Shown here piece after piece: positions 10,671-38,657 of a stretch of DNA of 64,000 nucleotides (position 1 is its first letter; every line of letters begins with the position of its first letter). The translations under genes were made by a program, and so were the position numbers. Source of the stretch: Phycisphaeraceae bacterium (GTDB taxonomy: Bacteria > Planctomycetota > Phycisphaerae > Phycisphaerales > Phycisphaeraceae); the NCBI GenBank assembly GCA_963674705.1, contig OY771506.1, positions 4,448,001-4,512,000 of the forward strand, written 5' to 3'. Below the pieces are notes generated by a model. It did no database searches, was not told the DNA's origin, and saw nothing but the letters and a program-made list of their open reading frames with translations.

Positions 10671-10826
10671 TTATTGTGATTGCATACGAACCTCTTCTGA
10701 GGTCAATGCTTTGTTTTTGGTAATCGATCGTCTTGACGTCCACCAGATTGTCACTGCATACCCCCACATCAAACCGATCGCCACGATGTATGCAAGAATG
10801 GTGTGCTGGAGTGGATCCATATTCAT
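10671..10826 (-). CDS. ccmD: CcmD-like small membrane protein (51 aa; not in the ORF track)
   Basis: Hand translation MNMDPLQHTILAYIVAIGLMWGYAVTIWWTSRRSITKNKALTSEEVRMQSQ; ATGA overlap with ccmC stop, GGAGGTG SD, one TM helix then basic tail. Confidence 0.72.
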   Translation of the reverse strand: MNMDPLQHTILAYIVAIGLMWGYAVTIWWTSRRSITKNKALTSEEVRMQSQ

Positions 10827-11539
10827 GCGACACCTCCAAGCCGACCCCTTACGATACTTTGAGACTCGTGTTGCCCACCGTCTTCAAGTTCTTCATGCTG
10901 AACTCGTTGTAGCAGGAAACGTGCAATAACTAAACCCACAGAGATCATGGTGACCGGTATCATGCAGACAAGGAGCGTCCACTTCATTTCTGTAGTCAGC
11001 GTGATCGATGAGGGATGGATGTCAGGCATCAACTTGACAGACAAGTAAACCAACGGCACATCAACAAAAGCCACGATTCCATATACTGCACTCACCAATG
11101 CCCTACGCTGTCGGGATTCGATTGATGGGCGTATCACAAGATAGGCCACGTACAGTAACCAGAGCACAAGACTGAAGGTTAAGCGCGGGCTCCAGGTCCA
11201 CCATACACCCCATGCACTGTGCCCCCAGATCATACCTGTCAGTAGAACCACACCACACAGTAGTACGGCGACCTTTGCTGACGACACTGCCAGATCGTCC
11301 CATACCTGTCGTCTTTGCCAAAGGTAGCCGACCGATGCGATGAAACAGACCAGGCAAGCCAGGAATGTATTAATGGCCACGGGCAAATGGAGATAGAATA
11401 CTTTTTGCACGATGCCCATCGTTTCTTCGACAGGTGTCCAGAAGAAAATCATGGCGGTCGCGACAGTAAACAACATCGCGGTCACCAGCCAGTATATTGC
11501 CCATATTGTCCCACTTATATGTTTCATCACAAATCCCAA
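10823..11539 (-). CDS. ccmC: Heme exporter/cytochrome c biogenesis protein CcmC
   Basis: VFYLHLP, WGHSAWGVWWTWSPRLT tryptophan-rich motif, DIHP; start may be 11527. Confidence 0.92.
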   Translation of the reverse strand: MGFVMKHISGTIWAIYWLVTAMLFTVATAMIFFWTPVEETMGIVQKVFYLHLPVAINTFLACLVCFIASVGYLWQRRQVWDDLAVSSAKVAVLLCGVVLLTGMIWGHSAWGVWWTWSPRLTFSLVLWLLYVAYLVIRPSIESRQRRALVSAVYGIVAFVDVPLVYLSVKLMPDIHPSSITLTTEMKWTLLVCMIPVTMISVGLVIARFLLQRVQHEELEDGGQHESQSIVRGRLGGVA

Positions 11540-12217
11540 TCATGGTTCGAGGATCAACTCAAACACGAGCCAACTCACAGTCAGGTATATCGCATCGAAT
11601 GCAATCAAGACCAAAACGCCAGTGGTATTAAAAGGTTCGTTGTCACCAAATAGGCGCATCATCATTTGAGTGGAAACGATCACTAAAGGCAGAGATACCG
11701 GAAAGATAAGGATAGCCAACAATCCACCCTGCAGGCGCGTCGAACTGACTGCAGCTGAGAACAACGTGCCGACGGCTGCAAATCCTACAAAACCTCCAGC
11801 CATGATCGCGACAAACCCGATCGGCGAAGCGGACAAATCGAAGCCAAACATGATCACCGCAACCGGTGTTACGACCAGCGATAGCGCGACCATCAATATC
11901 AGGTTGCTCAGTAATTTACCTGCATAAATTGCACCGCGATCAACAGGTGCCAACATGAGTCCGGCTAATGCGCCATCATGTCGCTCGACAGCCATGGTTT
12001 TTTCAAAGCACAAGACTCCGCCGAAAAGGTAGGCGACCCATAGGACCGCCGTCGCTGCGATTCCAGACTTGACCTGCTCTGGTCCTAGACCAAGACCGAG
12101 TACTACAACGATCAGCACACCCAGTACAACCACCAGTCCAAGCGTCTGTCGGCTGCGGGCTTCAATACGAAGATCTTTACTACTAATCAGAATGATTTGC
12201 TGGAGCACATGCGTCAT
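11540..12217 (-). CDS. ccmB: Heme exporter protein CcmB
   Basis: KDLRIEARSR, ERHDGALAGLMLAP, IYAGK, LLAILIFPVSLPL; about 6 TM. Confidence 0.92.
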   Translation of the reverse strand: MTHVLQQIILISSKDLRIEARSRQTLGLVVVLGVLIVVVLGLGLGPEQVKSGIAATAVLWVAYLFGGVLCFEKTMAVERHDGALAGLMLAPVDRGAIYAGKLLSNLILMVALSLVVTPVAVIMFGFDLSASPIGFVAIMAGGFVGFAAVGTLFSAAVSSTRLQGGLLAILIFPVSLPLVIVSTQMMMRLFGDNEPFNTTGVLVLIAFDAIYLTVSWLVFELILEP

Positions 12218-12999
12218 TGCCCGATCACCTCCCGCGTCACCGCTTCCGGATCAGCAAGATGGATCGGCTGGTCACATACAATATGCCCTTGACGCAAGAC
12301 AACCACACGTTTGGCAAGCTCAAGGCTTTGTCTGACATCGTGGTTTGTCAGGATGATGGTTTTACCTTCAGCATTAAGTTCGGCCAGCAGGTTCGTGACA
12401 GACACAACTGAAGGAACATCCAACCCTGAGAACGGTTCATCAGCCAGCATAAGATCAGGGGCATGCATTAAAGCCCGGGCTATGGATAATCTCTGCACCA
12501 TACCTCGGCTGAATGTTTTTACCTGGCTCTTAGCACGCTCCGCTAAATCAACACGTTCGAGCAATTCCATGGCACGCTCTGCGTGTCGTCTGACACCATA
12601 GAGTTTGCCAAAGAAGATAAGGTTCTCGATTGCTGAAAGATCGCGGTATAGCATCGGCTGATGACCGATGACACCGATCCGAGCACGGAGTTTAGGATTC
12701 GGACGATTCGCGGCTTCACCGAAGAGTGATATCCTCCCGGCAGTCGGTTGACTGAGCATCGCGAGTATGTGCAGCAGTGTACTTTTGCCGGCACCATTTG
12801 GTCCAAGCAGCGTCAGATATGAGCCTACCGGCACATTCAAGCTCAGTTTGCGTAGCACCCATCGTTCGTCATACCGCTTACACACTTGATTAAGGCATAC
12901 CGCAAGACCCGCCGATTCACTCTCGGCACGATTAGTTTCTAACACGGGCTCGGCGGTCATGCTGATCATCGGTAGATTAATTAGGTTAACCGGCTGCAC
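12214..12999 (-). CDS. ccmA: Heme ABC exporter ATPase CcmA
   Basis: GPNGAGKST Walker A, FSRGMVQR signature, LADEPFSGLD; position in ccm operon. Confidence 0.88.
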   Translation of the reverse strand: MQPVNLINLPMISMTAEPVLETNRAESESAGLAVCLNQVCKRYDERWVLRKLSLNVPVGSYLTLLGPNGAGKSTLLHILAMLSQPTAGRISLFGEAANRPNPKLRARIGVIGHQPMLYRDLSAIENLIFFGKLYGVRRHAERAMELLERVDLAERAKSQVKTFSRGMVQRLSIARALMHAPDLMLADEPFSGLDVPSVVSVTNLLAELNAEGKTIILTNHDVRQSLELAKRVVVLRQGHIVCDQPIHLADPEAVTREVIGQ

Positions 13000-14047
13000 C
13001 GGTAGGTTCTGGTTTACGGGAGGGTTTCATCATTACAACCAATGCCGCTAGAGCAACCGCTCCCCCACCAATGCCAGCGATCATTTTCATCTGACCCGAT
13101 TGGCCGCTTGCCGGATTTATCAAGGCAGGTGTGGCGGAGGAAGACTGCTCTTCACCGGCCGGCTCTACTTCTATTGTCACACTAATCGGTGTGCCTTTTT
13201 CGAGTTCTTTGCCCATGAACATCCGAAACTGTTTATTCCCGGCCTTGAATGGTTCACCGGCGGTCAGGCCCACCGCTTCAACCTTGGATTCATCGTCGGG
13301 TAGGAATACCATCATCTGCTTGATCGGCGCGTCAACTGTTAATGGCAGCTTGAATACACCATTCACTGGGGCAAGCAGGTAGTTGATGTGTAATTCGTTT
13401 GTACCTGGTATTAGTGGCATACCACTGACAAGTTTGCCATCTTCAACAAGCACATTGTCAGGCGCAAAGCCTCTACCCGGTTGCACGTGGCTGGCGTGCT
13501 GTGGGATCGGCATGGTAATTGTGATCCGTTCGAGCGTTTTCTGTTCAGCTTGGTCCCCCTTTGCAGGTTGTTCAAGGTTTCCGGTTTCGTTAGCGACAAC
13601 TGAATCCCCCGCTTTATCAGCACTTGGAACCTCAACCGGCTTGCCTATGTAACTCTTCTCAGTTGGGTTTACCACCGCCCAAACCTCGGTCACATGCATT
13701 TGATCTTCCATCGGTCGAACAATCAGATGACGAACAGCGACAAACCATTCCGGTTCTACCTCAGTGGTTTCGTAGACAACTTCCGGTGCCTTGGTGACGG
13801 GTGGATGTCCCGCCGGCATCTGGCCGTGGAATCGTTTCACCGGAGGATGGCCTTGAGGCATCTCCGGTTGCCCTTGCGGCGTCTCCTGTTGCCCCCCCGA
13901 CACGGGAGGATGGCCCGGAGGCATTTGTGGAGATTGCTGTGCTTGTTCATCACCCGTGGTTTGCGTCTCTTCAGCGTGCAACGAGCCCGTGGCAAGACAC
14001 AGGGACACGGCGAGAGATAATACGAACAGGAAAGCTATGCGTATCAC
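12986..14047 (-). CDS. Periplasmic C-terminally anchored protein in the ccm operon with three MPxGHPPV repeats
   Basis: Signal peptide, MPPGHPPV/MPQGHPPV/MPAGHPPV, C-terminal TM; overlaps ccmF stop. Confidence 0.75.
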   Translation of the reverse strand: MIRIAFLFVLSLAVSLCLATGSLHAEETQTTGDEQAQQSPQMPPGHPPVSGGQQETPQGQPEMPQGHPPVKRFHGQMPAGHPPVTKAPEVVYETTEVEPEWFVAVRHLIVRPMEDQMHVTEVWAVVNPTEKSYIGKPVEVPSADKAGDSVVANETGNLEQPAKGDQAEQKTLERITITMPIPQHASHVQPGRGFAPDNVLVEDGKLVSGMPLIPGTNELHINYLLAPVNGVFKLPLTVDAPIKQMMVFLPDDESKVEAVGLTAGEPFKAGNKQFRMFMGKELEKGTPISVTIEVEPAGEEQSSSATPALINPASGQSGQMKMIAGIGGGAVALAALVVMMKPSRKPEPTGAAG

Positions 14048-16146
14048 TTGATCGGCTCCGTTTCTTTGTTACTTATATTTGTATTGATGGTTGAACTGAC
14101 TTCGCAGAGTCCTTCGCCCGCTAGCGCCAGGTGCACCGAAGCGGGCTTACGTTTATTCTGCGATGTAGATTCAGGTGAGGACATAGGACCAGGTACGGTC
14201 TGGCTCATCAAACGTGGCATCAGACAGAACACTGCCCCTATTGACATGACAATCCCACCGATCCAGATCCATGCGACCAGTGGATTAATGATCGCCTGTA
14301 TCGCAACGAGTGAACCGTCTTCATTCCAACCGCCGAGTGTCAGGTAAGTATCACGCAACCATGTGGAGTTTAGTGCAACCTGAGCGCTGGGCTGCTCGGA
14401 CTTGTCATAGAATCGCCGTTGCGGACGCAGTTCAACAGGTGTACCACCATTTGAAGGATACAGGTTGACTTGCGCTTCAACCGCGGTGTAGTTGGCCTGA
14501 CGATTTTGATGTAGGCCGGCGAAGGTGATCGTGTACCCACTGATGCTGGCAGATTCACCCGGTGAGAGTCGGAAGTTCTGCTCGACACCAAAGAGGCTGG
14601 ACCCAGCCACACCGATCATGAATAACACCATACCGATATGAACAAACTGCCCACCATACCTCCGATGGTTACCATCGATTACGTGCAGTGTCGCTGTTAC
14701 TGCCGTTTCCTCCTCAATCTTCAAACGCTGCTTGACCGCATTGGCGAGACCGACGCCTACGCTGAGGATCGACACGGTCGCTATGGCCGCACAGGCCAAC
14801 GCCCAGGGATCTGTCAAGCCTAAAGCGGGCGCTATAACCAGCACTATTGCAGCCGTGATTGCAGGGATCAGCAGCCCTTTAGCAAGGGATCGGCCGGCAT
14901 CCTTGCCATAGGTCAATAAGGGCCCAACCGCCATAACAGCTAACAGTGCCAGGCCCAATGGCAGAACAATCTTGTTGTAGAAATTGGGTCCAACAGTCAC
15001 CGGCTCGGGCAAGACCACACTGCTGATCAGCGGGAAGATCGTACCGACCAGTGTCGTCAAAGTGATGATCACTAACAGAACGTTCACCGCAAGGAACGCG
15101 CCTTCCTTAGTAAACATGCCTTCCAGCGACTTCTCGCTCTTAAGCAGCTTATGGCGCCAAATAATCACCGCCATACTGATGACCACGCACAATCCAAGGA
15201 ATACCAGGAAGAACGTCGCGACCAGCGAACCGCCAAAAGCGTGCACAGACTGAACCACACCACTACGTGTCAGGTAAGTGCCGAAGATGCAGAGCAGGAA
15301 AGTCACCGAAATCAGCACCGCGTTCCAGGTCTTAAACATACCACGCTGCTGCTGGATCATGATCGAATGCAATAGTGCGGTGCCGGTCAGCCAGGGCAGG
15401 AGCGATGCATTTTCGACGGGGTCCCACGCCCAGTAGCCGCCCCAGCCCAACTCGATATATGCCCACTTAGCACCTAAGAGGATCCCGATGGTCAGGAACA
15501 GCCAAGACACCATCAGCCATTTACGTGTCGCACCGATCCACTGGTTATCTTTTCGCCCAGCGATCAAAGCCGCCAAGAGCATCGCCCAGGGGATTGTGTA
15601 CGCGGCATAACCGACGAACAGTAACGGCGGGTGGATGATCATGTACGGGTCTTGAAGCAATGGATTAAGACCACGGCCATCTACTGCCCTCACCGGTAAC
15701 TGCTCAAATGGATTGGCTGCGAACAACATCAAGGCCGCAAAGAATCCGCAGACCATTGCCAGTATCCTGATCATCACAGCCTGCTCGATGGTTTCACGCT
15801 TACTGTAGCTATACACTGCAACAGCACTCATACCCGCCAGCAACAGTGTCCAAAGCATCAGGCTGCCTTCCTGGCCGGCCCAGAAAGCAGCGATCTTATA
15901 GCCGGTGGGTAAAGCTTTTTCTGTATAGCTGGCGACGTATGCGTTCTGGAAGTCGCTGTTAATCAAGGCCGACAAGAGCGACCAACAGCTAAGCACAATC
16001 ATCACAACGTAAACATAAATCAACCGTCTTGCCCAGAGCAGCGCACCAGTCAGTCCATCCTTAGCCGCAAGCGCAGAGCAAAAAAACGCTCCAGCAGCTA
16101 TGAGCATCGCCCCAATCAAGCTGATGTAACCCATATCTGCTGTCAT
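14044..16146 (-). CDS. ccmF: Cytochrome c heme lyase CcmF
   Basis: WAGQEGSL, GLNPLLQ, IHPPLL, WGGYWAWDPVENAS, LTRSGVVQSVHAF. Confidence 0.95.
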   Translation of the reverse strand: MTADMGYISLIGAMLIAAGAFFCSALAAKDGLTGALLWARRLIYVYVVMIVLSCWSLLSALINSDFQNAYVASYTEKALPTGYKIAAFWAGQEGSLMLWTLLLAGMSAVAVYSYSKRETIEQAVMIRILAMVCGFFAALMLFAANPFEQLPVRAVDGRGLNPLLQDPYMIIHPPLLFVGYAAYTIPWAMLLAALIAGRKDNQWIGATRKWLMVSWLFLTIGILLGAKWAYIELGWGGYWAWDPVENASLLPWLTGTALLHSIMIQQQRGMFKTWNAVLISVTFLLCIFGTYLTRSGVVQSVHAFGGSLVATFFLVFLGLCVVISMAVIIWRHKLLKSEKSLEGMFTKEGAFLAVNVLLVIITLTTLVGTIFPLISSVVLPEPVTVGPNFYNKIVLPLGLALLAVMAVGPLLTYGKDAGRSLAKGLLIPAITAAIVLVIAPALGLTDPWALACAAIATVSILSVGVGLANAVKQRLKIEEETAVTATLHVIDGNHRRYGGQFVHIGMVLFMIGVAGSSLFGVEQNFRLSPGESASISGYTITFAGLHQNRQANYTAVEAQVNLYPSNGGTPVELRPQRRFYDKSEQPSAQVALNSTWLRDTYLTLGGWNEDGSLVAIQAIINPLVAWIWIGGIVMSIGAVFCLMPRLMSQTVPGPMSSPESTSQNKRKPASVHLALAGEGLCEVSSTINTNISNKETEPIK

Positions 16147-16559
16147 TGGATCGCCTCAATACGCTTTTCGTGTTCTTCTGACTGGTATTTGCTGGCACAT
16201 TTGGTCATCAGCGTGTCAGCCTGAAAGACACCGACTTCATCGAGTTTGCCCTCGACCATCACCTCACAACCAGGTTTGAAGGTATCCGGAACGACGCCTT
16301 CAAAATGGACCGGCACGCTATTGCTGGTGCCGCGCAGATCAAATGACGCCGTAAGCATGGCCGGTTGAACCTCAACTTTGTCTTCGTCCACCAGGCCATA
16401 CAACCGGACACGACGATGCTGGTAGCTGTCGTCCAGGACGAAGTCATCTACGTGCATGTAGTAGACCCAGCCGCTCTTGACTCCCGCGACGGCCAGGTAA
16501 CTTACCGAGGCGACCAATACCAGCCCCACAATCAACATTTTGATACGAACGTGTGTCAT
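16143..16559 (-). CDS. ccmE: Heme chaperone CcmE, CxxxY (System I*) variant
   Basis: VYY, VRLYGLV, GVVPDTFKPG, EGKL, LMTKCASKY; ATG 16559 preferred over the ORF-track start. Confidence 0.92.
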   Translation of the reverse strand: MTHVRIKMLIVGLVLVASVSYLAVAGVKSGWVYYMHVDDFVLDDSYQHRRVRLYGLVDEDKVEVQPAMLTASFDLRGTSNSVPVHFEGVVPDTFKPGCEVMVEGKLDEVGVFQADTLMTKCASKYQSEEHEKRIEAIQ

Positions 16560-16596
16560 AGCCCGTCCCTTTACACAAAGTTCCGGGATACATATC

Positions 16597-16611
16597 ACAA
16601 AGTCGATGCCA
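16597..16611 (-). promoter_or_regulatory. Possible sigma54 promoter for the ccm operon (imperfect -12)
   Basis: TGGCATCGACTTTGT: GG-N10-GT instead of GC, about 40 bp upstream of ccmE. Confidence 0.4.
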
Positions 16612-16908: not shown

Positions 16909-16924
16909 TGGTACAGCTCTTGCA
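16909..16924 (+). promoter_or_regulatory. sigma54 -24/-12 promoter of the OmcE-like tetraheme gene
   Basis: TGGTACAGCTCTTGCA = GG-N10-GC with TTGCA. Confidence 0.72.
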
Positions 16925-17227: not shown

Positions 17228-17833
17228 ATGAAAACAAAACTACTCGTCGGAGCAATCGCGGTGGCGGGTCTTGCGTTCGGGATGAACGGCACATCATATG
17301 CCGCCCACTCGGACCATGGCTGCGTTAACTGCCATATGCCCCACAAGTCCGGCGACCCAACTGATCCCGATGCCTACGGTGTGCCCCTGTGGAGCACCGC
17401 CCAGACAGCGGATGGATTGCCGACCTTCGATCTGTACACCAGCGCCAGCTTAGACGCGACAGACGTCAGCCAGCCCAGTGGCCCCAGCAAGCTATGCCTG
17501 GGTTGCCACGACGGCAGCTACGCCGTCTTCAGCTACATCCCCGACTCCGAAGCCATCTTCGAGACCGGCGATCTGGCCAGCTCGCACCCGATTTCGTTCA
17601 CCTATGACGACGCACTGGCAACTGCTGACGGTGGTCTGAAGCAACCCAGCACCGTAACCTCGGGCCTGGGCGGCACCATCGCCGAAGACCTGCTCGACTC
17701 ACAGGGCAAGATGCAGTGCACCAGCTGCCATGATGTTCACACCAGCGGACACGGCGATTACTTGTTGAAGTATGACATCGACGCCGCCTCCGAACATGAA
17801 GCCCTGCTCTGCCGGGCTTGTCACAACAAATAA
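17228..17833 (+). CDS. Secreted tetraheme cytochrome c, OmcE-like (candidate filament subunit)
   Basis: Signal peptide; CVNCH, CLGCH, CTSCH, CRACH; OmcE-type pattern CHxPH..PLW..FxLYxS..SxLCxxCHDG..DLxxxHPxxF..CxSCHxVH..LCxxCH at extreme C-terminus; SD TAAGGAGAGG. Confidence 0.85.
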   Translation: MKTKLLVGAIAVAGLAFGMNGTSYAAHSDHGCVNCHMPHKSGDPTDPDAYGVPLWSTAQTADGLPTFDLYTSASLDATDVSQPSGPSKLCLGCHDGSYAVFSYIPDSEAIFETGDLASSHPISFTYDDALATADGGLKQPSTVTSGLGGTIAEDLLDSQGKMQCTSCHDVHTSGHGDYLLKYDIDAASEHEALLCRACHNK

Positions 17834-17867
17834 GTTCAATCCGTTTCGAGCAGCGTAGAGACCAAAT

Positions 17868-30784: not shown

Positions 30785-33034
30785 CTAGAGTAATCCCAGC
30801 CCCGCCAGAACGATCAACACAACCATCGATAACCCGATCGCCATCGCAGACACACCTACAAGTACCGCAACAGTTCGTGTCCACTTCGGTGGCGTCGGAA
30901 CCCGCAACGATTCCAACTCCCCGGTTTCCTTAATCCGCTGATATTCTGCCGGCCTTTCGTGCTCAAGTTCTTCCTCCGGCACGACACCAGTAAAGATCAC
31001 ATCATCCACCGGGAACTTCTCAGGACGCAGATTCGCGTTGAAGAAGTGGATCGTGAAGATGAAACCCGCCGCCAACAGCGCCTCGTACCCGTGCACGATT
31101 GTCGCAATATTAAACGACCAACCGGGGATGAACTTGGAGAAGAAGCCTGGGAACCAGAGCATCAAACCGGTGCTGCCGATGATGAAAGTACCCGCGATCT
31201 CCGCCCAGTAGTCGAACTTCTCCCAATAGGTCCAGCGATCGAATGCGGGCTTGCCTTTGCCGGTGAAGAACCAACGGAACATGCCCAGACAATCGGTAAA
31301 ATCCTTCCATCGGGGAAGCAGGGTATACGGCCCCATCAGCAGTGTCTTGGCCGGTTTCTTGCGGAAACGCTTGTAGACACCCACAAAGTGCACAACAAAA
31401 TTGATGACCAGAATAATGGCAAAGAAGCGGTGCCAGGTTCCCGCCGCTTCCACACCCCCCATGCCATACGCCAATGCCTTGGCCCACCCCTGATCGGAGA
31501 AGAGCAACGGCATGCCAGTCAGCGTGAGGCCGAAGAATGTGATCGCAACAAATGCGTGATTGACCCGATTGATCTTCCGGAATCGCTTTACTGAATAGGC
31601 CTGCTTCTTCGCGGCGGCTTCGCCTGCGGGTACTGGATGATTCTTCTTCTCAACCAGTGAACGGATCAACCACAACACGGAGTGCAGCCCGTAGAATCCA
31701 AAGGTGATGCTCATCAATATAATGAAGTATGTCCAGACCCCCGCAAGTAACGGGTACTTCTCCCAGTCCCGGAAGTCGGCGTGGGGCATGAACTGCACGA
31801 ACTTGGCGTTTGCTTCCTTGTGGCACTCACCACAGGTTGAAACAAGATTGGCCTCATTGACCCGTGAATCCGGATTCTCTGCAGGCAGGATGTCATGTGC
31901 TCCGTGACAATCACTGCAACGTGCGGCACGTGATGAGCCAAGTTGGTTCACCTGGCCGTGATAACTCATGCGATATGTGTCATAGAACGAACGAGCGATA
32001 CCGCTATCAGTCGACAGACGTTCATGGCACTGCCCGCACTCCCCGATGATGTCACGCATAAAACCGGGCGTCCCCGCCTGTGTAATGGAGTGGGCAGTAT
32101 GACAATCCGTACAGACAGGCGCATCGGGATTATCTTCTGCTAACCGCTGCCCGTGAATGCTCGTGACATAAACCTCTTCGATCCCGCTGTGACAACTGCC
32201 ACATGTGTCTGGGATATGCGTCCGGTTCACCGAGGAGCCTTCATCACTGCTGGGCAAGATATCGTGCGCCTTGTGGCAATCAACACAGGTCGCCGCCACG
32301 ATCAACCCCGCTTCACGGACCGCCTTGCCATGGACACTTTCCATGTAGCTTGTGACGTATTCGGAAGAATCCAGTCCGTTTGCTAACTTGTCGTGGTGCT
32401 CGCTGTGGCAATCTCCACAGAGGTTGACTACATTAAGCGGATACGTCTTGGCCCTGCGATCGGTCGATGGATAGATATCGTGCCCCCCGTGGCAATCAGC
32501 ACAGGTTGGCGCCGAATCATCCCCATTAGCCAGCGCTTCAGCGTGGATACCCCGACGATGCTCCGCCGCAGCAGTCGTGTGACATGCACCGGTGCAATTC
32601 ACCTGCTTCATCTGCATCGCGTGTGGCAGAAACTGTGCATCTTCGTGACATGAAGTACAAGCCAGCGCCGCGTGAGGACCGTCGGCTAAGGCATCCGGTG
32701 TGACAAAAAGACCCGGCCTCTCGACCGGCTCCGCTTCCAGAAGGGACCGATCCTCCGGCGGGGCGACCATTGAGCGCCGCTCCGCGACTGACAGATTGGA
32801 GATATGGTGTTGCCCGTGGCAGTTATAACAGCGATTGTTCTGGGTCTGTGCCTGGGTCAGTTCGACCGCCCAAGCCGGAGCTTGATACAAACCAATGACC
32901 GCAAGACATATCAGCAGCTGACAGAACAAACCACTCACGGCGTGCCCACAACTCGTGATTCGTCCTTTAGTGCTTTCAATCATCGTAGATACGTCCCTGA
33001 TCATCCCCGCCGGATTCCAATTACGACCGGTCAT
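30785..33034 (-). CDS. CbcL-like fusion: multiheme c domain (11 hemes) + FdnI-type cytochrome b membrane domain
   Basis: 10 CxxCH + CTGACH; NH..LTGMPL, WHR, DRWTYWEKFDYWA, HGYEALLAAGFIFTIHFFN..RPEKFP; ORF-track start 33124 falls inside the promoter, so ATG 33034 (SD GAGG) used. Confidence 0.87.
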   Translation of the reverse strand: MTGRNWNPAGMIRDVSTMIESTKGRITSCGHAVSGLFCQLLICLAVIGLYQAPAWAVELTQAQTQNNRCYNCHGQHHISNLSVAERRSMVAPPEDRSLLEAEPVERPGLFVTPDALADGPHAALACTSCHEDAQFLPHAMQMKQVNCTGACHTTAAAEHRRGIHAEALANGDDSAPTCADCHGGHDIYPSTDRRAKTYPLNVVNLCGDCHSEHHDKLANGLDSSEYVTSYMESVHGKAVREAGLIVAATCVDCHKAHDILPSSDEGSSVNRTHIPDTCGSCHSGIEEVYVTSIHGQRLAEDNPDAPVCTDCHTAHSITQAGTPGFMRDIIGECGQCHERLSTDSGIARSFYDTYRMSYHGQVNQLGSSRAARCSDCHGAHDILPAENPDSRVNEANLVSTCGECHKEANAKFVQFMPHADFRDWEKYPLLAGVWTYFIILMSITFGFYGLHSVLWLIRSLVEKKNHPVPAGEAAAKKQAYSVKRFRKINRVNHAFVAITFFGLTLTGMPLLFSDQGWAKALAYGMGGVEAAGTWHRFFAIILVINFVVHFVGVYKRFRKKPAKTLLMGPYTLLPRWKDFTDCLGMFRWFFTGKGKPAFDRWTYWEKFDYWAEIAGTFIIGSTGLMLWFPGFFSKFIPGWSFNIATIVHGYEALLAAGFIFTIHFFNANLRPEKFPVDDVIFTGVVPEEELEHERPAEYQRIKETGELESLRVPTPPKWTRTVAVLVGVSAMAIGLSMVVLIVLAGLGLL

Positions 33035-33117
33035 GGTTTGGCCTCGCATTCGGATGGCTGGGATTGAATCACGCCGACCACGCGAGGCGCGTACATACAA
33101 CCACCCAATTGCTGCAT

Positions 33118-33133
33118 TGCACACCGCGTGCCA
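33118..33133 (-). promoter_or_regulatory. sigma54 promoter of the inner-membrane/periplasmic cytochrome operon
   Basis: Minus strand TGGCACGCGGTGTGCA = GG-N10-GC with consensus TGGCACG. Confidence 0.78.
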
Positions 33134-33232: not shown

Positions 33233-34543
33233 TTACCCCTCCCGGTTAATGGGCAGGTGGATAATTGCCGTGACGCCCTCCCCGGGCTTGTTATCGAACT
33301 CAATTCGCCCCCCCTGCCGTCGGATCAGGTTGTAGCTGATCGCCAGCCCCAGGCCGGTCCCTTTCCCGACTGGCTTGGTGGTGAAGAATGGCTCGAACAG
33401 GTGTGGCATGTGCTCCGGATCAATCCCCGGACCGTTGTCGGAAATCCATATCCTGCAGAACTGGCCGTTAAAAGCTGTCCCGACTTCAAGCCGCGGATTA
33501 TCCACTTGCCCTTCTTCCAGTGCATCCAACGAATTGAACAAAAGATTGGTCAGCACCTGCTGCAACGCATGCGGCTGTACTTCACACGCCCGGTTCTCCG
33601 ATGACAATTGCTTGTCTATCGTGACCTTGCGCTGCCTCCGATCAAACCGCGACATCTGCAAAGCCGACTCGACCTGGTCATTAATCGATACCCGCTCCCA
33701 GTGATAGTCAGTTGGATGAGCAAAGTCAGTTAGTTGACGAACGGTTTGCTTGATACGCTGGACCTGCTGCCGAAGGGATTCAATATTCTCCGGTGTCAGG
33801 TGCTTGTCGTTTCGCTGAATGAGTTGAAGTACGCTGTCCATGCTGGCTAGCGGGTTAGCGACTTCATGGGCAACTCCCGCAGCCATCTGCCCCAACCCAA
33901 CCATCTTCTCCTGCTGGATCATCGCCTCTTGCTGTTTCCGCAATTGCCGAACCAAGGCACGCACCCGGCGATTTCTTGCAAGCAGGTGCCAGTGATTGCG
34001 ACGCAGTGCATGCATGATGTGATTGGCCAGATAGATCGTCACCAGCAGCATGACCGCCCAGCCGACAAGCATTAATCGCTCAATGAATGTTTGAGGCAAG
34101 CTATCACTTACCGCCAGGCAACCCATCAACATCAACATCGCCGACAGAGCCACGCCATACGCATGCGCCGGCTGAAACAACATGCTCGTGAATACCATGT
34201 GGAACACAAAGAAGCCTATCAAAGGGCTCTGCAGACCACCTGTCCAGGTTGTCAGGATTGCCAGGCACCACAAGTCAGGCAGAATATGCAGCCAGACAAT
34301 CGGAGCATGTTGTCCCGAGTTTGTCTTGTAATACCTGAGCCTCTGCCTAAGTACGGCGTTGTAGGCAATGATCAGCCCCCCGATCACGACCATCCATGGC
34401 GCCATTGGATACCAATGCAGCCATAGCCAATCCAGGCCCGAAGCCAGGATCACGACCGCTGCCGCGATCCAGCGCAGCCGCACCAGCCAGACTATTTGCT
34501 GGATAAGCAAGCGCGTGGATTGATTCAATTGCTGTTCCGCCAT
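33233..34543 (-). CDS. Membrane sensor histidine kinase with RegB/PrrB-like TM domain
   Basis: WLVRLRWIAA, TGGLQSPL; H-box AAGVAHEVANPL; N, G1 (DNGPG), F (FEPFFTTK), G2 (GTGLGL) boxes. Confidence 0.88.
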   Translation of the reverse strand: MAEQQLNQSTRLLIQQIVWLVRLRWIAAAVVILASGLDWLWLHWYPMAPWMVVIGGLIIAYNAVLRQRLRYYKTNSGQHAPIVWLHILPDLWCLAILTTWTGGLQSPLIGFFVFHMVFTSMLFQPAHAYGVALSAMLMLMGCLAVSDSLPQTFIERLMLVGWAVMLLVTIYLANHIMHALRRNHWHLLARNRRVRALVRQLRKQQEAMIQQEKMVGLGQMAAGVAHEVANPLASMDSVLQLIQRNDKHLTPENIESLRQQVQRIKQTVRQLTDFAHPTDYHWERVSINDQVESALQMSRFDRRQRKVTIDKQLSSENRACEVQPHALQQVLTNLLFNSLDALEEGQVDNPRLEVGTAFNGQFCRIWISDNGPGIDPEHMPHLFEPFFTTKPVGKGTGLGLAISYNLIRRQGGRIEFDNKPGEGVTAIIHLPINREG

Positions 34544-34567: not shown

Positions 34568-35611
34568 CTACCTGCCCGCCGATGACTCGGGCCCGTCCTC
34601 TCGAGTCGATTCCTGCAGGTCCAGCATTTTAACACCATCCACGTAATCAGTCAGCACCACCCGCTTTAGCTGCTTCAGTGACGCGATCACCCCGGACATC
34701 CGATGCAGATTTTCCTGGATCTGCCCCAACCCCTTCTGTAGTGCCTCGTCAGGCCCGGATCGGCGTCGAAGCAGTGTCAATTGCAGGTCAATGGTGGTGA
34801 TCGCGTTGTTCAATTCGTGATTTAAGGTCAATGCGGTCTGCTGGAGCGTCTGGATACGCCGACGCTCATTTTCCTGAAGCTGCTCCGCCAGGCTGTTGTA
34901 GGCCTGCGCCAGTTCATCAAATTCGTCCGACTGGCCGATCACCACCCGATGCTCGAAGTTTTCCTTGGCTAATTCACGGCTGGCGTGTACGAGCCTGCCG
35001 ATAGGTCGAAGAACCATCCCGGCGGCACGCAACATCATCAATATCGACGTGTTGATTACGACCATAAAGCCAAGCGCAATCGCCACCACCAGCCAGCGGA
35101 ACTGCCCCGTCAGGATGGACTGCTCATCCCGTGAGTGTGCCTGGACATGGCGTGAGATTTCAAGCAGTTCATAGTGCATCTGTGCAGCCCGATCCAGACA
35201 CGCCATGTTGTACTGAAGCGATAATTCACGATCATTCGCTGTCGCCAGGATACCGACCAACGACTCAAATTCTTTCATGTCCGCCATATATTGCTGATAT
35301 GTCGGATAAATCTCCGGTTGCTTGATCGAATGATGCGAACCGAGTTCTACCGCCACCGCGTTCATCGCTTCGATCTCATCGACAAGCTGGTCCAGGTGTT
35401 GCTGCCGACCGGTCTGTAATGCATACAACTCGACCTGTACCGTCGACAAGCGAGTGTTTAATTCACTGGTGTGGTCAACCGCCATCGCGGCCGTGCGCAG
35501 GTTGTCCATGTCCACAAACACACGCTGCAATGACCACAAGGCAGCCACCGCCAACACCATGAGCATCGCGGCCAGAGTGACCAGGATCAGCATCAGTTTA
35601 CGGCGCAGCAT
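34568..35611 (-). CDS. Two-TM sensor with HAMP and H-box (HisKA-like) but no ATPase domain
   Basis: Periplasmic helical domain, HAMP (RPIGRL..DEFDELAQAYN), TLNHELNNAI, protein ends soon after; ATG 35611 with SD. Confidence 0.78.
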   Translation of the reverse strand: MLRRKLMLILVTLAAMLMVLAVAALWSLQRVFVDMDNLRTAAMAVDHTSELNTRLSTVQVELYALQTGRQQHLDQLVDEIEAMNAVAVELGSHHSIKQPEIYPTYQQYMADMKEFESLVGILATANDRELSLQYNMACLDRAAQMHYELLEISRHVQAHSRDEQSILTGQFRWLVVAIALGFMVVINTSILMMLRAAGMVLRPIGRLVHASRELAKENFEHRVVIGQSDEFDELAQAYNSLAEQLQENERRRIQTLQQTALTLNHELNNAITTIDLQLTLLRRRSGPDEALQKGLGQIQENLHRMSGVIASLKQLKRVVLTDYVDGVKMLDLQESTREDGPESSAGR

Positions 35612-36647
35612 GCTGGAAGCCCCCTTCTTCTTTTGCAGATAGCATATCGGACCGCATCGACTGTAACGCCGATTCCGGAGCCACTCCGATCTCATTCCAA
35701 TCCGGCCCCAGCTTTTCAATCATGTCATAGACAGACTGGAATTCCTCACGATCGCAAGGTTGAAACCTTGCAATACCAAACACTGACAAAACCCGAAGAC
35801 CTGCCTCGTTCTTATCCATATCCAGCAGAACGCTCGTTAATTGCTTGACCAGACTCACATCCAGATCACGCCGGACCAGCAGTGCGTTGTTAGGTACCGG
35901 TTCACCAACAGCCAATCTTCGGTAATGGATTGCCGGATCCGCCTTTTCAATGGCATCGATACGCAGGTCTTTCGCTGCCCCCGCATCCACTCGACCAAGT
36001 TGCACCTGATGTATTACCTGATCGTGTGTACCGACCCATCGTATGGTCACACGCTTGTCACCACTTAACAGGCCATGCTCACTAAGAACATACATCGGGA
36101 ACAGATGGCCGGCAGTCGTTGTCTGGATCATCGCGATGGATCGCCCTGCCAGGTCTTCCAGGCTGCGGATTGGTGAATTTTCCCGCACGAAGATAACACC
36201 GCGATAAGTACTGACGCCATCTGCTGTCTCCGGCTTCACAAGCACACGGGCATCCAACTGCCTGAGGGTCATCGCTCCTACCATCGACCCCATAAATGAC
36301 GCATCTGTTTGCCCATCAGCCATGTCCTTGAACGCCTGTTCATAATTGCTGGGCGTAACTAACTCGATCGGCCGTCCAAGCTCCTCCGACAGGTAATCTG
36401 CAAGTGCATGGTAGCGGCGACGCTGCTCAAAAACGTCTCGCTCGGGCATGATGCCGATCCTCAAAGCGACCATCCCTGACACGTTACGCACAGGTGAAGG
36501 CATATCGGTCTGCTTGTCCGGTTTGGGTTCTCGGCTCAACCAACAAAGCATCAAAAGAATCAACACCAACAGCGTACAGCTGAGAATCACCATCGAAATG
36601 CGCATGCGAGCTACTGCCATCAATCCATTCCTGCAATCTTCTTTCAC
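35598..36647 (-). CDS. PhnD-family (phosphate/phosphite/phosphonate-type) substrate-binding protein, N-terminally anchored
   Basis: LRIGIMP, LADYLSEELGRPIEL, YRGVIFVR, TTTAGHLFP, GTHDQVI, PVPN; no ABC permease nearby. Confidence 0.85.
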   Translation of the reverse strand: MKEDCRNGLMAVARMRISMVILSCTLLVLILLMLCWLSREPKPDKQTDMPSPVRNVSGMVALRIGIMPERDVFEQRRRYHALADYLSEELGRPIELVTPSNYEQAFKDMADGQTDASFMGSMVGAMTLRQLDARVLVKPETADGVSTYRGVIFVRENSPIRSLEDLAGRSIAMIQTTTAGHLFPMYVLSEHGLLSGDKRVTIRWVGTHDQVIHQVQLGRVDAGAAKDLRIDAIEKADPAIHYRRLAVGEPVPNNALLVRRDLDVSLVKQLTSVLLDMDKNEAGLRVLSVFGIARFQPCDREEFQSVYDMIEKLGPDWNEIGVAPESALQSMRSDMLSAKEEGGFQHAAP

Positions 36648-36768: not shown

Positions 36769-37152
36769 ATGATTTTGCCTGCAAATAAAAACCAATATAA
36801 AGATATAAAAACCTTTAATGATCTGCATTTGCTCATCAAATTCATTGAGGTTTACTGCCAAGGCCATCATTCTGAACAAGCAGAATGCGATCTGTCGTTC
36901 TTGAAATATGTTGATCTGAAAGAACTTACGAACAAATTGCCGGACCTGTGCCCGGACTGTCAGAAGCTGCTTACGCATGCCCTTGTTAAACGCTCAACAT
37001 GTCCAATGGACCCTAAACCGACTTGTAAACACTGCACAAAGCACTGCTACCATCCCCATTACCGACAGCAGATTCGTGAGGTGATGAAGTATTCCGGTAA
37101 AAAGTTGGTGCTGCGAGGGCGGATAGATTATCTGATACATCTACTTTTTTGA
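36769..37152 (+). CDS. ygbA: YgbA-family ('nitrous oxide-stimulated promoter') Cys-rich protein
   Basis: IEVYCQGHH, LCPDCQKLL, CPMDPKPTCKHCTKHCY, IREVMKYSG. Confidence 0.85.
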   Translation: MILPANKNQYKDIKTFNDLHLLIKFIEVYCQGHHSEQAECDLSFLKYVDLKELTNKLPDLCPDCQKLLTHALVKRSTCPMDPKPTCKHCTKHCYHPHYRQQIREVMKYSGKKLVLRGRIDYLIHLLF

Positions 37153-37179
37153 GTGCAATTGAGAGGAAAATGACTTACA

Positions 37180-37197
37180 ATTCTCACTCTTGAGAAT
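37180..37197. promoter_or_regulatory. Perfect ATTCTCA-N4-TGAGAAT palindrome upstream of the activator gene
   Basis: ATTCTCACTCTTGAGAAT, 90 bp before the NtrC-family start. Confidence 0.68.
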
Positions 37198-37286
37198 GTT
37201 GGCGGGCGTATCTTTCATAACCAATGCGATGTCGACAAACGGGTAGTACCGGTTCGTCAGAGGACATCTATCTGCAGGCTAAGTCC

Positions 37287-38657
37287 ATGAGCAAATCGAT
37301 CCTGATTGTTGAAGACGAGGAGGTGTTACGCCAGAGCCTCGCGGAACTGCTTTCCGATGAAGGCTATGAAGTCCAGCAGGCATCCGACGGCAAGCAAGCG
37401 TACGAGTTGATCCTCGATCATCCGGCCGACCTGATCCTGACGGATATCCGCATGCCGAATATGGACGGCCTGGAACTGCTGGGCAAACTGCGACAGACCG
37501 CCCCACAGACGCCGGTCATTATTCTCACGGCCTACGGCACGGTGGAAAGCGCTGTCGCCGCGATGCACAGCGGCGCCCATGACTACATGCTCAAACCCGT
37601 CAACTTCGACGAGGTTTTGTTGAAGATCGAACGTGCGCTTGAATACGGCGATATGGACCGCACACGCCAAGTGATGACCGATCAGCTTGCAGAAGACAGC
37701 ACCTTCCACAATCTCGTCGGTGAAGCACCAAACATGACCCGCTTGTTTGATACGGTGAAAAAACTCGCCACCGTAAAAACAAGTGTGCTGATCGTGGGCG
37801 AATCCGGGACAGGCAAAGAGCTGTTCGCCCGGGCCGTACATTACAACGGTATCACACGCGATAAGCCTTTTGTCGCGGTAAACTGCGGCGCAATCCCTGA
37901 CAACCTGATCGAGTCGGAACTCTTCGGCTATCGGCGAGGCGCCTTCACCGGTGCTATCCGTGACAAAAAGGGATACTTTGAAGCCGCACATCACGGGACC
38001 CTGTTTCTCGATGAAATATCCACACTCCCATTAAGCGTACAAAGCTCATTGCTGCGTGCATTGGAGCAGCGAGTCGTCGTTCCCGTAGGGGACACTCAAC
38101 CCAGGCCGGTCGATGTCCGGATCATCGCCGCGAGCAACCGCGATCTTAAAACCATGGTCTCGGAAGGCGAGTTCCGTGAGGACCTGCTTTACCGCTTGGA
38201 TGTGGTCAAGCTGGAATTGCCGCCGCTGCGTCAACGTAAAGAAGATATCCCCGCATTGGTCCATCACTTCCTGAATAAATACACGCAAGCGATGAATAAA
38301 CACGTGCTGGGGATCACGAATGACGCCATGCGCGCGATGCTCTCGCATGAATGGCGGGGAAACGTACGCGAACTGGAAAACGTTATTGAAAGAGCCGTGA
38401 TCTTCGCCGAAGACCGGCACATCGAACCTGAGGACCTGCCCTTTGCCGTCCCCGGACTCGGCCACGATGATTCTGAATCCTTGAAAGAAGCGATGCGCCA
38501 GTTCGAACGCCATCACATCATGTACTGCCTCAAGAAACACAACTTCGATAAGGCCGAAGCCGCCAAACATCTTGAGATCGGGATCTCCAGCCTCTATCGC
38601 AAGCTGGAAGAACTAAACATCCCTAAAAAGTTTGATGAGAATCCTACCCCCGTCTAA
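37287..38657 (+). CDS. sigma54-dependent NtrC-family response regulator
   Basis: Receiver (ILIVEDE, TDIRMP, KP), GESGTGKE, GAFTGA, LFLDEI, WRGNVRELEN, Fis-type HTH. Confidence 0.95.
   Translation: MSKSILIVEDEEVLRQSLAELLSDEGYEVQQASDGKQAYELILDHPADLILTDIRMPNMDGLELLGKLRQTAPQTPVIILTAYGTVESAVAAMHSGAHDYMLKPVNFDEVLLKIERALEYGDMDRTRQVMTDQLAEDSTFHNLVGEAPNMTRLFDTVKKLATVKTSVLIVGESGTGKELFARAVHYNGITRDKPFVAVNCGAIPDNLIESELFGYRRGAFTGAIRDKKGYFEAAHHGTLFLDEISTLPLSVQSSLLRALEQRVVVPVGDTQPRPVDVRIIAASNRDLKTMVSEGEFREDLLYRLDVVKLELPPLRQRKEDIPALVHHFLNKYTQAMNKHVLGITNDAMRAMLSHEWRGNVRELENVIERAVIFAEDRHIEPEDLPFAVPGLGHDDSESLKEAMRQFERHHIMYCLKKHNFDKAEAAKHLEIGISSLYRKLEELNIPKKFDENPTPV

Follow-up and report, generated by a model that had tools for sequence, protein, structure and literature searches.

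A 28-kb multiheme cytochrome locus of a Phycisphaeraceae bacterium encoding a candidate OmcE-type filament subunit and a candidate end-piece

The window analysed here, a 64,000-nt stretch of a Phycisphaeraceae genome, contains a block (10671..38657) in which seven multiheme cytochrome genes are grouped with a ~28-strand beta-barrel, two NHL lipoproteins, a Ccm operon and sigma-54 regulators:

10823..11539, minus strand: ccmC (PF01578; TIGR01191 E=3e-27)
11540..12217, minus: ccmB (PF03379 E=7e-28)
12214..12999, minus: ccmA (ABC ATPase; TIGR01189 127 bits against a cut-off of 131.6)
12986..14047, minus: membrane-anchored GHP-repeat protein between ccmF and ccmA (no Pfam or NCBIfam family)
14044..16146, minus: ccmF heme lyase (PF16327, PF01578)
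16143..16598, minus: ccmE with a CxxxY motif (PF03100; motif from the translation)
16909..16924, plus: sigma-54-type promoter of the tetraheme gene (1 mismatch, GG and GC kept)
17228..17833, plus: OmcE-like secreted tetraheme, candidate filament subunit (4 CxxCH; PDB matches)
17859..17913, no strand: hairpin lying between the tetraheme gene and the convergent NHL1 gene, likely terminator (inverted repeat with 23-nt arms and a 9-nt loop)
17942..19036, minus: NHL beta-propeller lipoprotein 1, NHL1 (PF01436; lipobox C24)
19108..19123, minus: sigma-54-type promoter of NHL1 (1 mismatch)
19292..20485, plus: decaheme lipoprotein (10 CxxCH; lipobox C59; synteny)
20482..22485, plus: plug-less outer-membrane beta-barrel, ~28 strands, inserted domain 383-460 (AlphaFold2)
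22488..23579, plus: NHL beta-propeller lipoprotein 2 (PF01436; lipobox C29)
23542..25230, plus: secreted 12-heme cytochrome, candidate filament cap (11 CxxCH + 1 CX3CH)
25315..26334, minus: exported thioredoxin-like/TPR protein (TPR families; weak N-terminal ResA match, E=7e-4)
26346..27686, minus: periplasmic 15-heme cytochrome b (13+2; motif count)
27683..29233, minus: 15-heme lipoprotein cytochrome a (13+2; motif count; lipobox C38)
29230..30774, minus: NapC/NirT-anchored 12-heme cytochrome (11+1; PF03264 E=2.5e-13, TIGR03153; one N-terminal helix)
30785..33124, minus: CbcL/MtrH/MtoC-family quinol oxidoreductase (10+1 c-hemes, b-type membrane domain; PF01292, cytochrome b561)
33118..33133, minus: sigma-54-type promoter of the cbcL-napC-15h-15h-TPR operon (1 mismatch; similar site in two relatives)
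33233..34543, minus: membrane histidine kinase (HisKA + HATPase)
34568..35719, minus: HAMP-HisKA sensor without ATPase domain (Pfam domains)
35598..36647, minus: PhnD-like periplasmic binding protein (PF12974 E=2e-55)
36769..37152, plus: YgbA-family protein (PF11756)
37224..38657, plus: sigma-54-dependent response regulator (receiver + AAA + Fis HTH)

A recount over the seven multiheme genes, in the order of the list, gave 4+10+11+13+13+11+10 = 72 CxxCH and 0+0+1+2+2+1+1 = 7 CX3-4CH motifs, exactly the 79 of the original prediction. These genes represent 7 of the 17 six-frame open reading frames of the genome with at least two CxxCH. The true start of the decaheme gene is probably downstream of the annotated TTG, and that of the CbcL-family gene probably near 33034-33049.

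Chimerism of the contig, which had been named as a possible refutation, was ruled out. A single contig from run X1 (possibly the source sample) spans 10538-27900 with zero differences, single contigs from runs X3 and X7, belonging to two other studies, are collinear over 8112-27900, and genome G004 carries the same genes with the same flanks. The host had been expected to be a Phycisphaerae-like heterotroph, and its 16S gene shows 100% identity across 1510 nt with that of a Phycisphaeraceae genome (82% with Fontivita). The block is flanked by GH2, GH112-type phosphorylase, pectate lyase and GH43 genes, and the host genome contains many glycoside hydrolases, two futalosine-pathway menaquinone genes, NrfAH, an octaheme reductase, ACIII, and aa3 and cbb3 oxidases; RuBisCO was not found in it.

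The block had also been described as an island. Its composition is indeed atypical (GC 52.4% versus 56.6%; rank 2 of 197 in tetranucleotide composition), but that of the 38 kb upstream is even more so (GC 49.8%), no tRNA genes were found in the 64-kb window nor repeats at the block boundaries, and the block is present genus-wide, with the tetraheme and napC genes in 8 of 10 genomes. The block lacks the mobility marks and sporadic distribution of a horizontally acquired island; it is a common conserved module and not a host-specific island. The signature 12-heme gene occurs in about a fifth of the Phycisphaerae genomes (87/400), and six core parts were found together in 30 of the 37 barrel loci of at least 15 kb (31 of all 52 barrel loci). 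The inner-membrane module is often unlinked: cbcL/napC-like genes lie 10 kb or less from the barrel in 15 of 52 loci, and in Fontivita the distance is about 4 Mb. A paralogous set of the cluster genes is present in Fontivita pretiosa, which is in culture. Linkage of the core to CbcL-like genes was also observed in gammaproteobacterial and Desulfarculales loci, and the same core appears in Thiodiazotropha records. No stand-alone tetraheme was present within the fetched stretch of three of the 37 long loci.

The regulatory cassette that had been claimed was confirmed, and sigma-54 sites are common to the tetraheme gene, NHL1 and the cbcL operon. The block contains 3 of the 88 sites detected genome-wide, against 0.44 expected, and all three head transcription units; 13 of 22 homolog rows have the NHL1 site in their upstream region, and the genome carries rpoN. 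No Ccm copy other than the operon of the block is present in the genome, which also has a separate housekeeping CcsBA-type gene, in line with the proposed self-contained heme maturation. The ccmE of the operon is of the CxxxY type, which we take to be the cysteine type of System I*, and the gene of the GHP-repeat protein occupies the same place between ccmF and ccmA in relatives.

The assignment of the tetraheme as OmcE-like was confirmed by matches to the PDB chains 7TFS (E=1.8e-8) and 9YUQ (E=1.8e-6), with profile E values of 3-4e-12. It is ~25-34% identical to Geobacter-type OmcEs and retains the four non-motif His of OmcE; H27, H39, H120 and H171 are invariant in 64/64 sequences. Its N-terminus lacks ~15 residues, the first His lying 5, not 19-24, residues before motif 1. 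The stand-alone tetraheme diversifies faster than the OmcE-like module fused to the 12-heme protein, and is often duplicated. From its sequence, it is a candidate for polymerization into a conducting filament, and its own sigma-54 promoter and terminator would fit a high-copy subunit.

The first four hemes of the 12-heme protein form an OmcE-like module (residues 17-217 match 7TFS, E=2.7e-24), and in a quick tree the fused modules group in one clade across phyla (42 rows, SH-aLRT 99). The family has 28 conserved His; of the non-motif His, 16 are kept in 98% or more of 51 proteins, which is four above what 12 hemes need. A heterodimer prediction with four hemes supplied scored 0.70 for the complex with the tetraheme, while the best of three controls scored 0.01; the mark applied had been passed by 116 of 157 solved complexes and by 2 of 215 mismatched pairs, counts that carry over roughly to this setting. 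The runs agreed in at least 72% of contacts, with partner pLDDT of at least 81, and the predicted interface is head-to-tail, with the heme-1 face against the heme-3/4 face. Since both chains are OmcE homologues, the score possibly reflects memory of the solved OmcE filament. The module and the docking agree with the adaptor role that had been assigned to this protein and, together with the single clade and the surplus invariant His, suggest a candidate nanowire anchor or tip. The omcE literature lists such an end-piece as missing: the start, anchoring and end of cytochrome nanowires are described as open, and OmcE operons are reported to encode no tip candidate (PMC13712944).

The product of 20482-22485 was claimed to be a beta-barrel, a non-barrel fold being a named refuter; its AlphaFold2 model folds as a barrel (mean pLDDT 90.2, pTM 0.76) with ~28 strands, as counted here from the DSSP list. 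It gave no Pfam match and no sequence match to any PDB chain, and its top fold match was MtrB (6R2Q_B; TM 0.42, Z 15.2, rmsd 8.7, 429 aligned). In the paralogous cluster type, a pentaheme takes the place of the adjacent decaheme, and the decaheme is absent at its position in 4/4 long Thiodiazotropha loci, whereas the OmcE-capped 11/12-heme stays beside the barrel.

The cbcL-napC-15h-15h-TPR genes gather 53 heme motifs in one operon. As had been anticipated, the first encodes a CbcL-like protein, with an N-terminal multiheme region and a PF01292 domain; it is 41% identical to single 9-heme proteins of ~635 aa in three Geobacter-type genomes. A hydropathy scan of its C-terminal half placed 4 helices above threshold, versus 5 in homologues (about six in the family). 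The NapC/NirT-type protein has the N-terminal helix, a CxxCHxM first motif and the Lys; where an acidic residue is expected, all 13 other rows of the subfamily have Gln, some of these rows repeating a locus. We take CxxCHxM, Lys and the acidic residue to have quinol-site roles in NapC/NirT. The C-terminal 316 columns of 15-heme cytochrome b are 39% identical to the 9+2-heme cytochrome of a Geobacter-type omcE locus.

From these data we lean towards a sigma-54-controlled trans-envelope conduit ending in an OmcE-type filament, which would mainly export electrons from sugar oxidation. By analogy with known CbcL, the CbcL-family protein would oxidise menaquinol in the direction we infer; the co-operonic NapC-anchored 12-heme and two 15-hemes would then bridge the periplasm, presumably in that order, and the decaheme lipoprotein may pass electrons to the barrel complex. 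The modelled barrel and the two NHL lipoproteins would secrete and hold the wire, as suggested by omcE and uet, and the OmcE-like module of the 12-heme would let this protein cap the tetraheme polymer at one end, as a base threading the barrel or as a mineral-facing tip. The sole Ccm copy would serve as a dedicated maturation system. The continuous route proposed originally thus retains its CbcL-family, barrel, 12-heme adaptor and tetraheme components, whereas its decaheme-in-porin step is doubtful because of the pentaheme in the paralogous type and the missing gene in Thiodiazotropha. Extracellular acceptors would be metal oxides, humics or partner cells, used when oxygen and nitrite are short. 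The evidence for the cluster consists of sequence and predicted structures, and its transcription and filament formation are predictions from these.

Host physiology (menaquinone genes, no RuBisCO found, hydrolases, NrfAH, oxidases) favours export, and export under anoxia is the most likely direction. The same machine could run inward, with reduced minerals, Fe(II) or humics feeding electrons through menaquinone/ACIII to cbb3/aa3, which would give a heterotroph extra energy at oxic-anoxic interfaces. The host has ACIII, aa3 and cbb3, the same core occurs in Thiodiazotropha, which are sulfur oxidisers, the barrel and 12-heme are homologous to proteins of uet-order loci, a system proposed for uptake, and NHL/multiheme clusters of D. 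ferrophilus have been linked to cathode uptake. We nevertheless regard uptake as somewhat unlikely: the lack of a detected RuBisCO, the carbon-fixation marker searched for, and the abundant CAZymes indicate an electron-rich cell, and the two OmcE filaments with solved structures belong to metal reducers. It is also rather improbable that the locus encodes a porin-cytochrome conduit lacking a long filament, in which the barrel and 12-heme (with or without the decaheme) make up a short, fixed wire and the tetraheme, as a monomer or short surface extension, meets humic quinones, polysulfide, sulfur oxyanions or other soluble or colloidal partners. The shortened tetraheme N-terminus, the MtrB-like barrel fold, the long loci devoid of a stand-alone tetraheme and the PhnD-like sensor, which suggests a small-anion signal and presumably resembles tetrathionate/thiosulfate sensors, are compatible with such a wire; the invariance of all four OmcE distal His, the tetraheme's own promoter and terminator, and its faster diversification and frequent duplication argue for a polymer.

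Filaments formed mainly for adhesion, biofilm structure, or metal scavenging or detoxification seem very improbable. A biofilm role has been suggested for bundled OmcE, and what cytochrome filaments do physiologically is reported to be under dispute (PMC11077965); however, the quinol oxidoreductase operon shares the sigma-54 signature and the locus, and 79 hemes plus a second maturation system would be costly for such purposes.

If the export conduit is functional, Phycisphaerae would connect the turnover of polysaccharides with the cycling of iron, manganese or humics; the available description presents them as facultative anaerobic degraders of complex carbon, and such a system is not discussed there. 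We put forward only tentatively, as possible though rather doubtful, that the OmcE-capped 12-heme is the missing end-piece and joins omcE and uet into one superfamily of barrel-mounted wires, and that polysaccharide-degrading Phycisphaerae, of which about a fifth have this gene, are a sizeable overlooked set of electroactive heterotrophs coupling glycan breakdown to minerals or partner cells via a complete quinol-to-filament circuit. This cluster type encodes a candidate end-piece beside a barrel, with a testable interface. The full circuit and its own maturation genes lie within 28 kb, and therefore suit heterologous study, and F. pretiosa offers a cultured relative open to testing.

The original statement that no system of this kind had been described does not hold, in view of the omcE parts list, the sister uet cluster, and the DFE- and CbcL-type matches in Phycisphaerae already in print. 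In the CbcL/MtrH/MtoC family, two planctomycete homologues had been counted, and the family works in both directions with no direction-specific feature (PMC6295460); an N-terminal multiheme region and a b-type membrane domain are shared, and the protein described here differs in its 10+1 hemes and its co-operonic NapC-anchored 12-heme and two 15-hemes. MtrCAB (PDB 6R2Q) also has a plug-less large barrel beside a decaheme gene, but with 26 strands versus ~28, an rmsd of 8.7 and an MtrC that is absent from the block. An MtrAB porin-cytochrome was rejected by sequence, as the decaheme scored 85 bits against the cut-off of 192 for the DmsE/MtrA family TIGR03508 and the barrel lacked Pfam and PDB sequence matches. 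Multihemes clustered with two NHL propellers, likened here by description, are found in DFE_448-451/461-465 of D. ferrophilus (PMC5815863) and, by a second-hand account, in the osc cluster of omcS. The DFE clusters are described without a porin, and deletion of similar D. ferrophilus cytochromes is reported to leave Fe(III) oxide reduction going.

The minimal omcE nanowire cluster has a published six-part list and is known from five phyla, Planctomycetota not among them, with filaments solved from the metal reducers G. sulfurreducens (PDB 7TFS) and D. soudanensis (PDB 9YUQ) (PMC13712944). Shared with it are a tetraheme in which four further His accompany the four motif His, a pair of multihemes, two propeller lipoproteins and a large barrel, as well as adjacent heme-maturation genes, which are Ccm here and ResB/CcsB there. 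The short tetraheme N-terminus and the linked CbcL/NapC operon are features of the present locus, and an OmcE-fused 12-heme was present in 0 of the 6 Geobacter-type loci examined (L094-L097, L099, L100). The barrel families show no clear homology (hhalign 20%, E=0.001, over the C-terminal third and with a 6-sequence template; best E=9.5e-4 for the A1 profile against Geobacter-type omcE barrels). The uet cluster of Ca. Tenderia electrophaga, Tenderiales and some Gallionella, proposed for uptake (bioRxiv 2022.05.06.490989; PMC10734462), shares the tetraheme, the 28-strand barrel, two NHL proteins and an undecaheme. The uet loci compared were identified through their gene order, with PPIase, c7 triheme, ResB and TPR confirmed, and not through Tenderia accessions. 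No open reading frames for the UetB PPIase, UetDEG trihemes, UetF cupredoxin, ccsAB or batABD occur in 10823-38657; the 12-heme has 562 aa versus about 900, the barrel has an inserted domain, a deca/pentaheme lipoprotein is added, and the host is a heterotroph. The barrel aligns with uet-order barrels (hhalign 95.8%, E=8e-9, 519 columns), the 12-heme is 31% identical to the uet-order undecaheme over 455 columns, and the N-terminal module of the latter falls in the same clade. In its parts, the six-gene core matches the minimal omcE cluster; the homology of its barrel and 12-heme places it nearer to uet.

The cluster (10671..38657) comprises the following features:

10823..16598 (-), ccm operon
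17228..17833 (+), tetraheme cytochrome
17942..19036 (-), NHL lipoprotein 1 (NHL1)
19292..20485 (+), decaheme cytochrome
20482..22485 (+), barrel
22488..23579 (+), NHL lipoprotein 2
23542..25230 (+), 12-heme cytochrome
25315..26334 (-), TPR protein
26346..27686 (-) and 27683..29233 (-), 15-heme cytochromes
29230..30774 (-), NapC-like protein
30785..33124 (-), CbcL-like protein
37224..38657 (+), regulator

Counting motifs on the translations reproduced exactly the inventory of the original prediction: the seven multiheme genes hold 72 CxxCH and 7 CX3-4CH motifs. Pfam and NCBIfam models, together with lipobox reading, placed two NHL lipoproteins, one TPR protein and a sensor/regulator cassette in the same block. 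The same models gave the maturation operon the order ccmE-F-X-A-B-C, and no match to the ccmD, ccmG or ccmH/I families was detected in this operon. A GHP-repeat protein lies between ccmF and ccmA (12986-14047) and is conserved alongside the cysteine-type ccm operon. A genome-wide search found no second copy of the ccm genes; a 678-aa CcsBA-type gene is located elsewhere in the genome, separate from the cluster, and two cluster-less genomes of the same genus contain one CcsBA-type match each and no more. From the lack of a second ccm copy and the single match in the cluster-less relatives, we infer that the Ccm system travels together with the cluster; maturation is self-contained, as predicted, in that the sole ccm copy sits within it.

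Three strict sigma-54 sites head the tetraheme, NHL1 and cbcL units (88 sites genome-wide, 0.44 expected per 28 kb), and rpoN was found in the genome. The enrichment concerns the strict form only, since the loose pattern with 2 mismatches was observed 31 times against 40 expected. Among the homologous loci, in counts that take in the window itself and some loci fetched twice, a strict site was present upstream in 9 of 17 tetraheme rows, 13 of 22 NHL1 rows, 2 of 22 decaheme rows and 2 of 6 cbcL rows, and in none of the 18 barrel, 9 TPR or 7 regulator rows. A search of 10000-39500 against Rfam gave no match, and thus no known riboswitch in the ~300-nt tetraheme leader. In two relatives (L026:5047-6417 and L029:6349-7626), a radical SAM gene resembling AhbC/NirJ1 (a heme biosynthesis family, with the hit below cut-off) adjoins the regulator; this gene is missing from the block in the window.

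The 667-aa orphan at 20482-22485 had been claimed as a barrel, and AlphaFold2 confirmed an outer-membrane barrel with a pLDDT of 90.2 when an alignment of 64 homologues was used (29.9 from the single sequence). The model has ~28 strands, counted by hand, lacks a plug, and carries an extra domain inserted at 383-460. Its top fold match was MtrB, by a narrow lead (TM 0.42; Z 15.2, rmsd 8.7, 429 aligned; runner-up Z 13.3). The barrel profile had no match among PDB sequences, and on this result and the NCBIfam models the label MtrAB was dropped. An atlas search returned 30 look-alike clusters and no Pfam family. The inserted 80-residue domain (21628-21867) showed a weak phage tail-tube match (NF052337, E=2.7e-6, below cut-off) and belongs to no Pfam family; it is not present in barrels of loci with the gene order of uet, the cluster of Tenderiales and some Gallionella.

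On the inner-membrane side, the NapC-like protein has a Gln at the position where NapC-type quinol sites are expected to carry an acidic residue, so this protein may serve as a relay anchored in the membrane and not as another quinol oxidase. The C-terminal half of the 15-heme proteins is common to a cytochrome of the Geobacter omcE locus. The product of 30785-33124 belongs to the CbcL family, defined after the accessible text of PMC6295460; it shares 41% identity with a single 9-heme protein in each of three Geobacter-type genomes and had no match among PDB sequences.

The genome is a single 5.54-Mb contig, and over 1510 nt its 16S is identical to the one in a genome recorded as Phycisphaeraceae. 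Contigs from two other studies are collinear over the left boundary and the core, and G004, another genome with the cluster, has the same genes and the same flanks, which excludes a chimeric contig. The flanks encode glycoside hydrolases and a pectate lyase, and RuBisCO had no match in the genome; with the 16S, this bears out the heterotrophic Phycisphaerae-like host proposed originally. The genome also encodes ACIII with an aa3-type oxidase, a cbb3 oxidase, NrfAH, an octaheme tetrathionate-reductase-family protein, an Hmc-like 22-heme cytochrome, two menaquinone (futalosine) genes and two NiFe hydrogenases with neighbours of cytoplasmic type. By gene content, the host looks like a facultative heterotroph. 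A second trans-periplasm candidate was observed at L003:8659-14287 (G000:C1:1538658-1544286, in the source genome), where a 22+3-heme HmcA-like cytochrome with a C-terminal TPR, 34% identical to the 15-heme proteins, adjoins a fused HmcB/HmcC (HybA/HybB)-like gene. Downstream of the cluster, 47338-60245 holds four large high-GC genes (one for a PEP-CTERM protein, one for a GH43 that carries passenger repeats, and two for ricin-lectin/laminin-G proteins), and 62910-63539 encodes a REP-associated tyrosine transposase.

The cluster is real, intact and widespread in Phycisphaerae. The tetraheme query matched 8 of 10 genomes of the same genus, 9 of 24 of the same family and 12 of 40 related ones, and the napC-like gene was matched in 8 of the 10 same-genus genomes. 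The OmcE-like module of the 12-heme protein was found in 87 of 400 other Phycisphaerae genomes, every match at E <= 2.4e-46, with 15/16, 22/27 and 20/25 genomes in three families and 0/23 and 0/24 in others. Within the phylum, the barrel profile matched 16 of 400 genomes, in 11 cases near full length, and 42 of 52 barrel loci are records titled Planctomycetota or a subgroup. The complete six-gene core (17228-25230) is present in 31 of these 52 loci, and in 30 of the 37 loci of at least 15 kb. Two cluster types were distinguished, the decaheme type of the window and a paralogue with a pentaheme. The same core also occurs in Desulfarculales, Thiodiazotropha and related genomes of those groups; two surveys there gave 35/301 and 48/401, counts that take in other OmcE-like genes too.

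The term "island" holds for composition, which is atypical, yet the upstream flank is more so; the cluster is genus-wide and neither a tRNA nor boundary repeats were found around it, which rules out a recent mobile island. A stretch of ~80 kb of low GC (49-54% vs 56.6%; G000:C1:4400000-4480000) includes the cluster and upstream sugar genes. The 5.5 kb from 17001 to 22500 (tetraheme, NHL1, decaheme, barrel) share 98-100% DNA identity with G004, most flanking 500-nt blocks are 86-96% identical, and near-identity returns in shorter patches at 23501 and 40001; these outer-surface genes were likely exchanged recently between the two species. Two records titled Actinomycetes/Actinomycetota (L049, L050) carry the full barrel cluster and nest in the Phycisphaerae type in the tree, the label being likely a mislabelling or mis-binning. 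Two to four tandem OmcE-like genes, including 5-/6-heme forms, were seen in L056, L057, L072, L078-L080 and L084, suggesting interchangeable filament subunits. In gammaproteobacterial loci (L125, L126, L129, L089-L092), the core precedes a CbcL-like pair in split form (7+1 or 6+2 hemes, the cytochrome b being separate), genes for an 8-heme and a 3-heme protein and, in some, a large 10-18-heme gene. The cultured Fontivita pretiosa, a facultative anaerobe, has the paralogous six-gene core with ccm (L117) and a cbcL-napC-15h-15h-TPR operon (L116).

Residues 17-217 of the 12-heme protein match OmcE at E=2.7e-24, a stronger hit than that of the stand-alone tetraheme. A quick tree of 112 modules, with five unreliable long-branch rows, unites the 42 fused modules of 11-CxxCH proteins in a single clade (SH-aLRT 99); outside the uet-order group they are mostly 185-189 residues long, whereas stand-alone subunits differ widely. 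Across 51 distinct proteins, conservation reaches 98% or more at the 12 motif His and at 16 further His, four above the need of bis-His ligation for 12 hemes. When residues 30-330 were modelled together with the mature tetraheme and four hemes, the predicted complex scored 0.70, and the best of 3 controls 0.01; of 157 solved complexes 116 attained the docking mark, and of 215 mismatched pairs 2 did so, figures that apply here only roughly. The runs share at least 72% of contacts, with partner pLDDT of at least 81, although the network may have passed the pair by having memorised the OmcE filament. In the model, the 12-heme protein turns its heme-1 face (residues 34-75) to residues 115-120, 167 and 184-201 of the tetraheme, and Pro66/His67 lie opposite Cys167 and His120. 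In the OmcS filament, the equivalent His ligates across subunits. From the model we infer that His67 would ligate tetraheme heme 3; for OmcS, the accessible part of a review confirms only that an interfacial heme takes a ligand from the neighbouring subunit.

The accessible text of the omcE paper (PMC13712944) calls for either an anchor whose His exceed the need or a tip bearing additional hemes, and reports none in its operons; the 12-heme protein is a candidate that fits either role. The original route ran through the decaheme and porin and then the 12-heme protein. For the latter part, the OmcE match and the predicted docking support the 12-heme protein as adaptor to the tetraheme. The decaheme step is doubtful, the gene being a pentaheme in the paralogue and lacking from this place in Thiodiazotropha and uet-order loci; judged by gene content, the constant partner of the barrel is the 12-heme protein, not the decaheme. 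Three things are left standing: a locus with the complete quinol-to-filament set, a candidate for the end-piece of nanowires and, as a cultured organism for tests, Fontivita pretiosa.

As originally stated, sequence does not decide the direction of electron flow. Export through a filament, favoured by the heterotrophy of the host, is on balance the probable role. Electron uptake, to which the kinship with uet and the host oxidases point, seems unlikely, and a conduit working without a filament somewhat more so. Against any respiratory reading, export included, the accessible text on D. ferrophilus states that deletions of comparable cytochromes left Fe(III) oxide reduction unblocked. A non-respiratory role is considered very improbable.

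The absence of any described system of this kind, also claimed originally, was not upheld, given the omcE parts list, the homology to uet and the wide spread in Phycisphaerae. The tetraheme matches both solved OmcE filaments in PDB and profile searches and keeps its four non-motif His in 64/64 sequences; homology to OmcS was not detected by profile (E=0.45). According to the accessible text of PMC13712944, the smallest omcE cluster consists of OmcE, two multihemes, two propeller lipoproteins and a large barrel, the same parts list as 17228-25230, and Planctomycetota is not among the five phyla named there. In the accessible text of each source, HMM hit lists give DFE variants (D. ferrophilus cytochromes) and CbcL for Phycisphaerae, a potential for iron reduction for four Planctomycetota MAGs, and 24 genes labelled "iron reduction" for one Phycisphaeraceae MAG; none of these texts describes an OmcE cluster, and a class-wide Phycisphaerae survey searched only mtrBC. 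The literature searched, which lay outside subscription journals, yielded no description of a planctomycete OmcE cluster. Geobacter-type omcE loci (such as L099, whose tetraheme matches 7TFS at E=7e-119) differ in having an 8-heme, a 9-10-heme, ResB/CcsB and a 720-800-aa barrel with no detectable kinship to that of the window. The uet cluster, as given in the accessible text of the Tenderiales preprint (bioRxiv 2022.05.06.490989), comprises a tetraheme, a PPIase, a 28-strand barrel, trihemes, a cupredoxin, two NHL and an undecaheme; it is proposed there for electron uptake, and OmcE is not mentioned in that text. The named Tenderia UetC was not reached via a gammaproteobacterial barrel homologue, a Leptothrix record being the only result. 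In loci picked by the published uet gene order, the barrels align with that of the window over 519 columns (95.8%, E=8e-9), the undecahemes are 31% identical to the 12-heme protein, and the tetrahemes are OmcE-like, as is that of the window. Since the omcE parts list is combined here with a barrel not detectably related to the Geobacter-type one, and the barrel and undecaheme homology leads to uet, the cluster is, as far as sequence comparison goes, a third architecture that lies between omcE and uet, belongs strictly to neither and would work like both.
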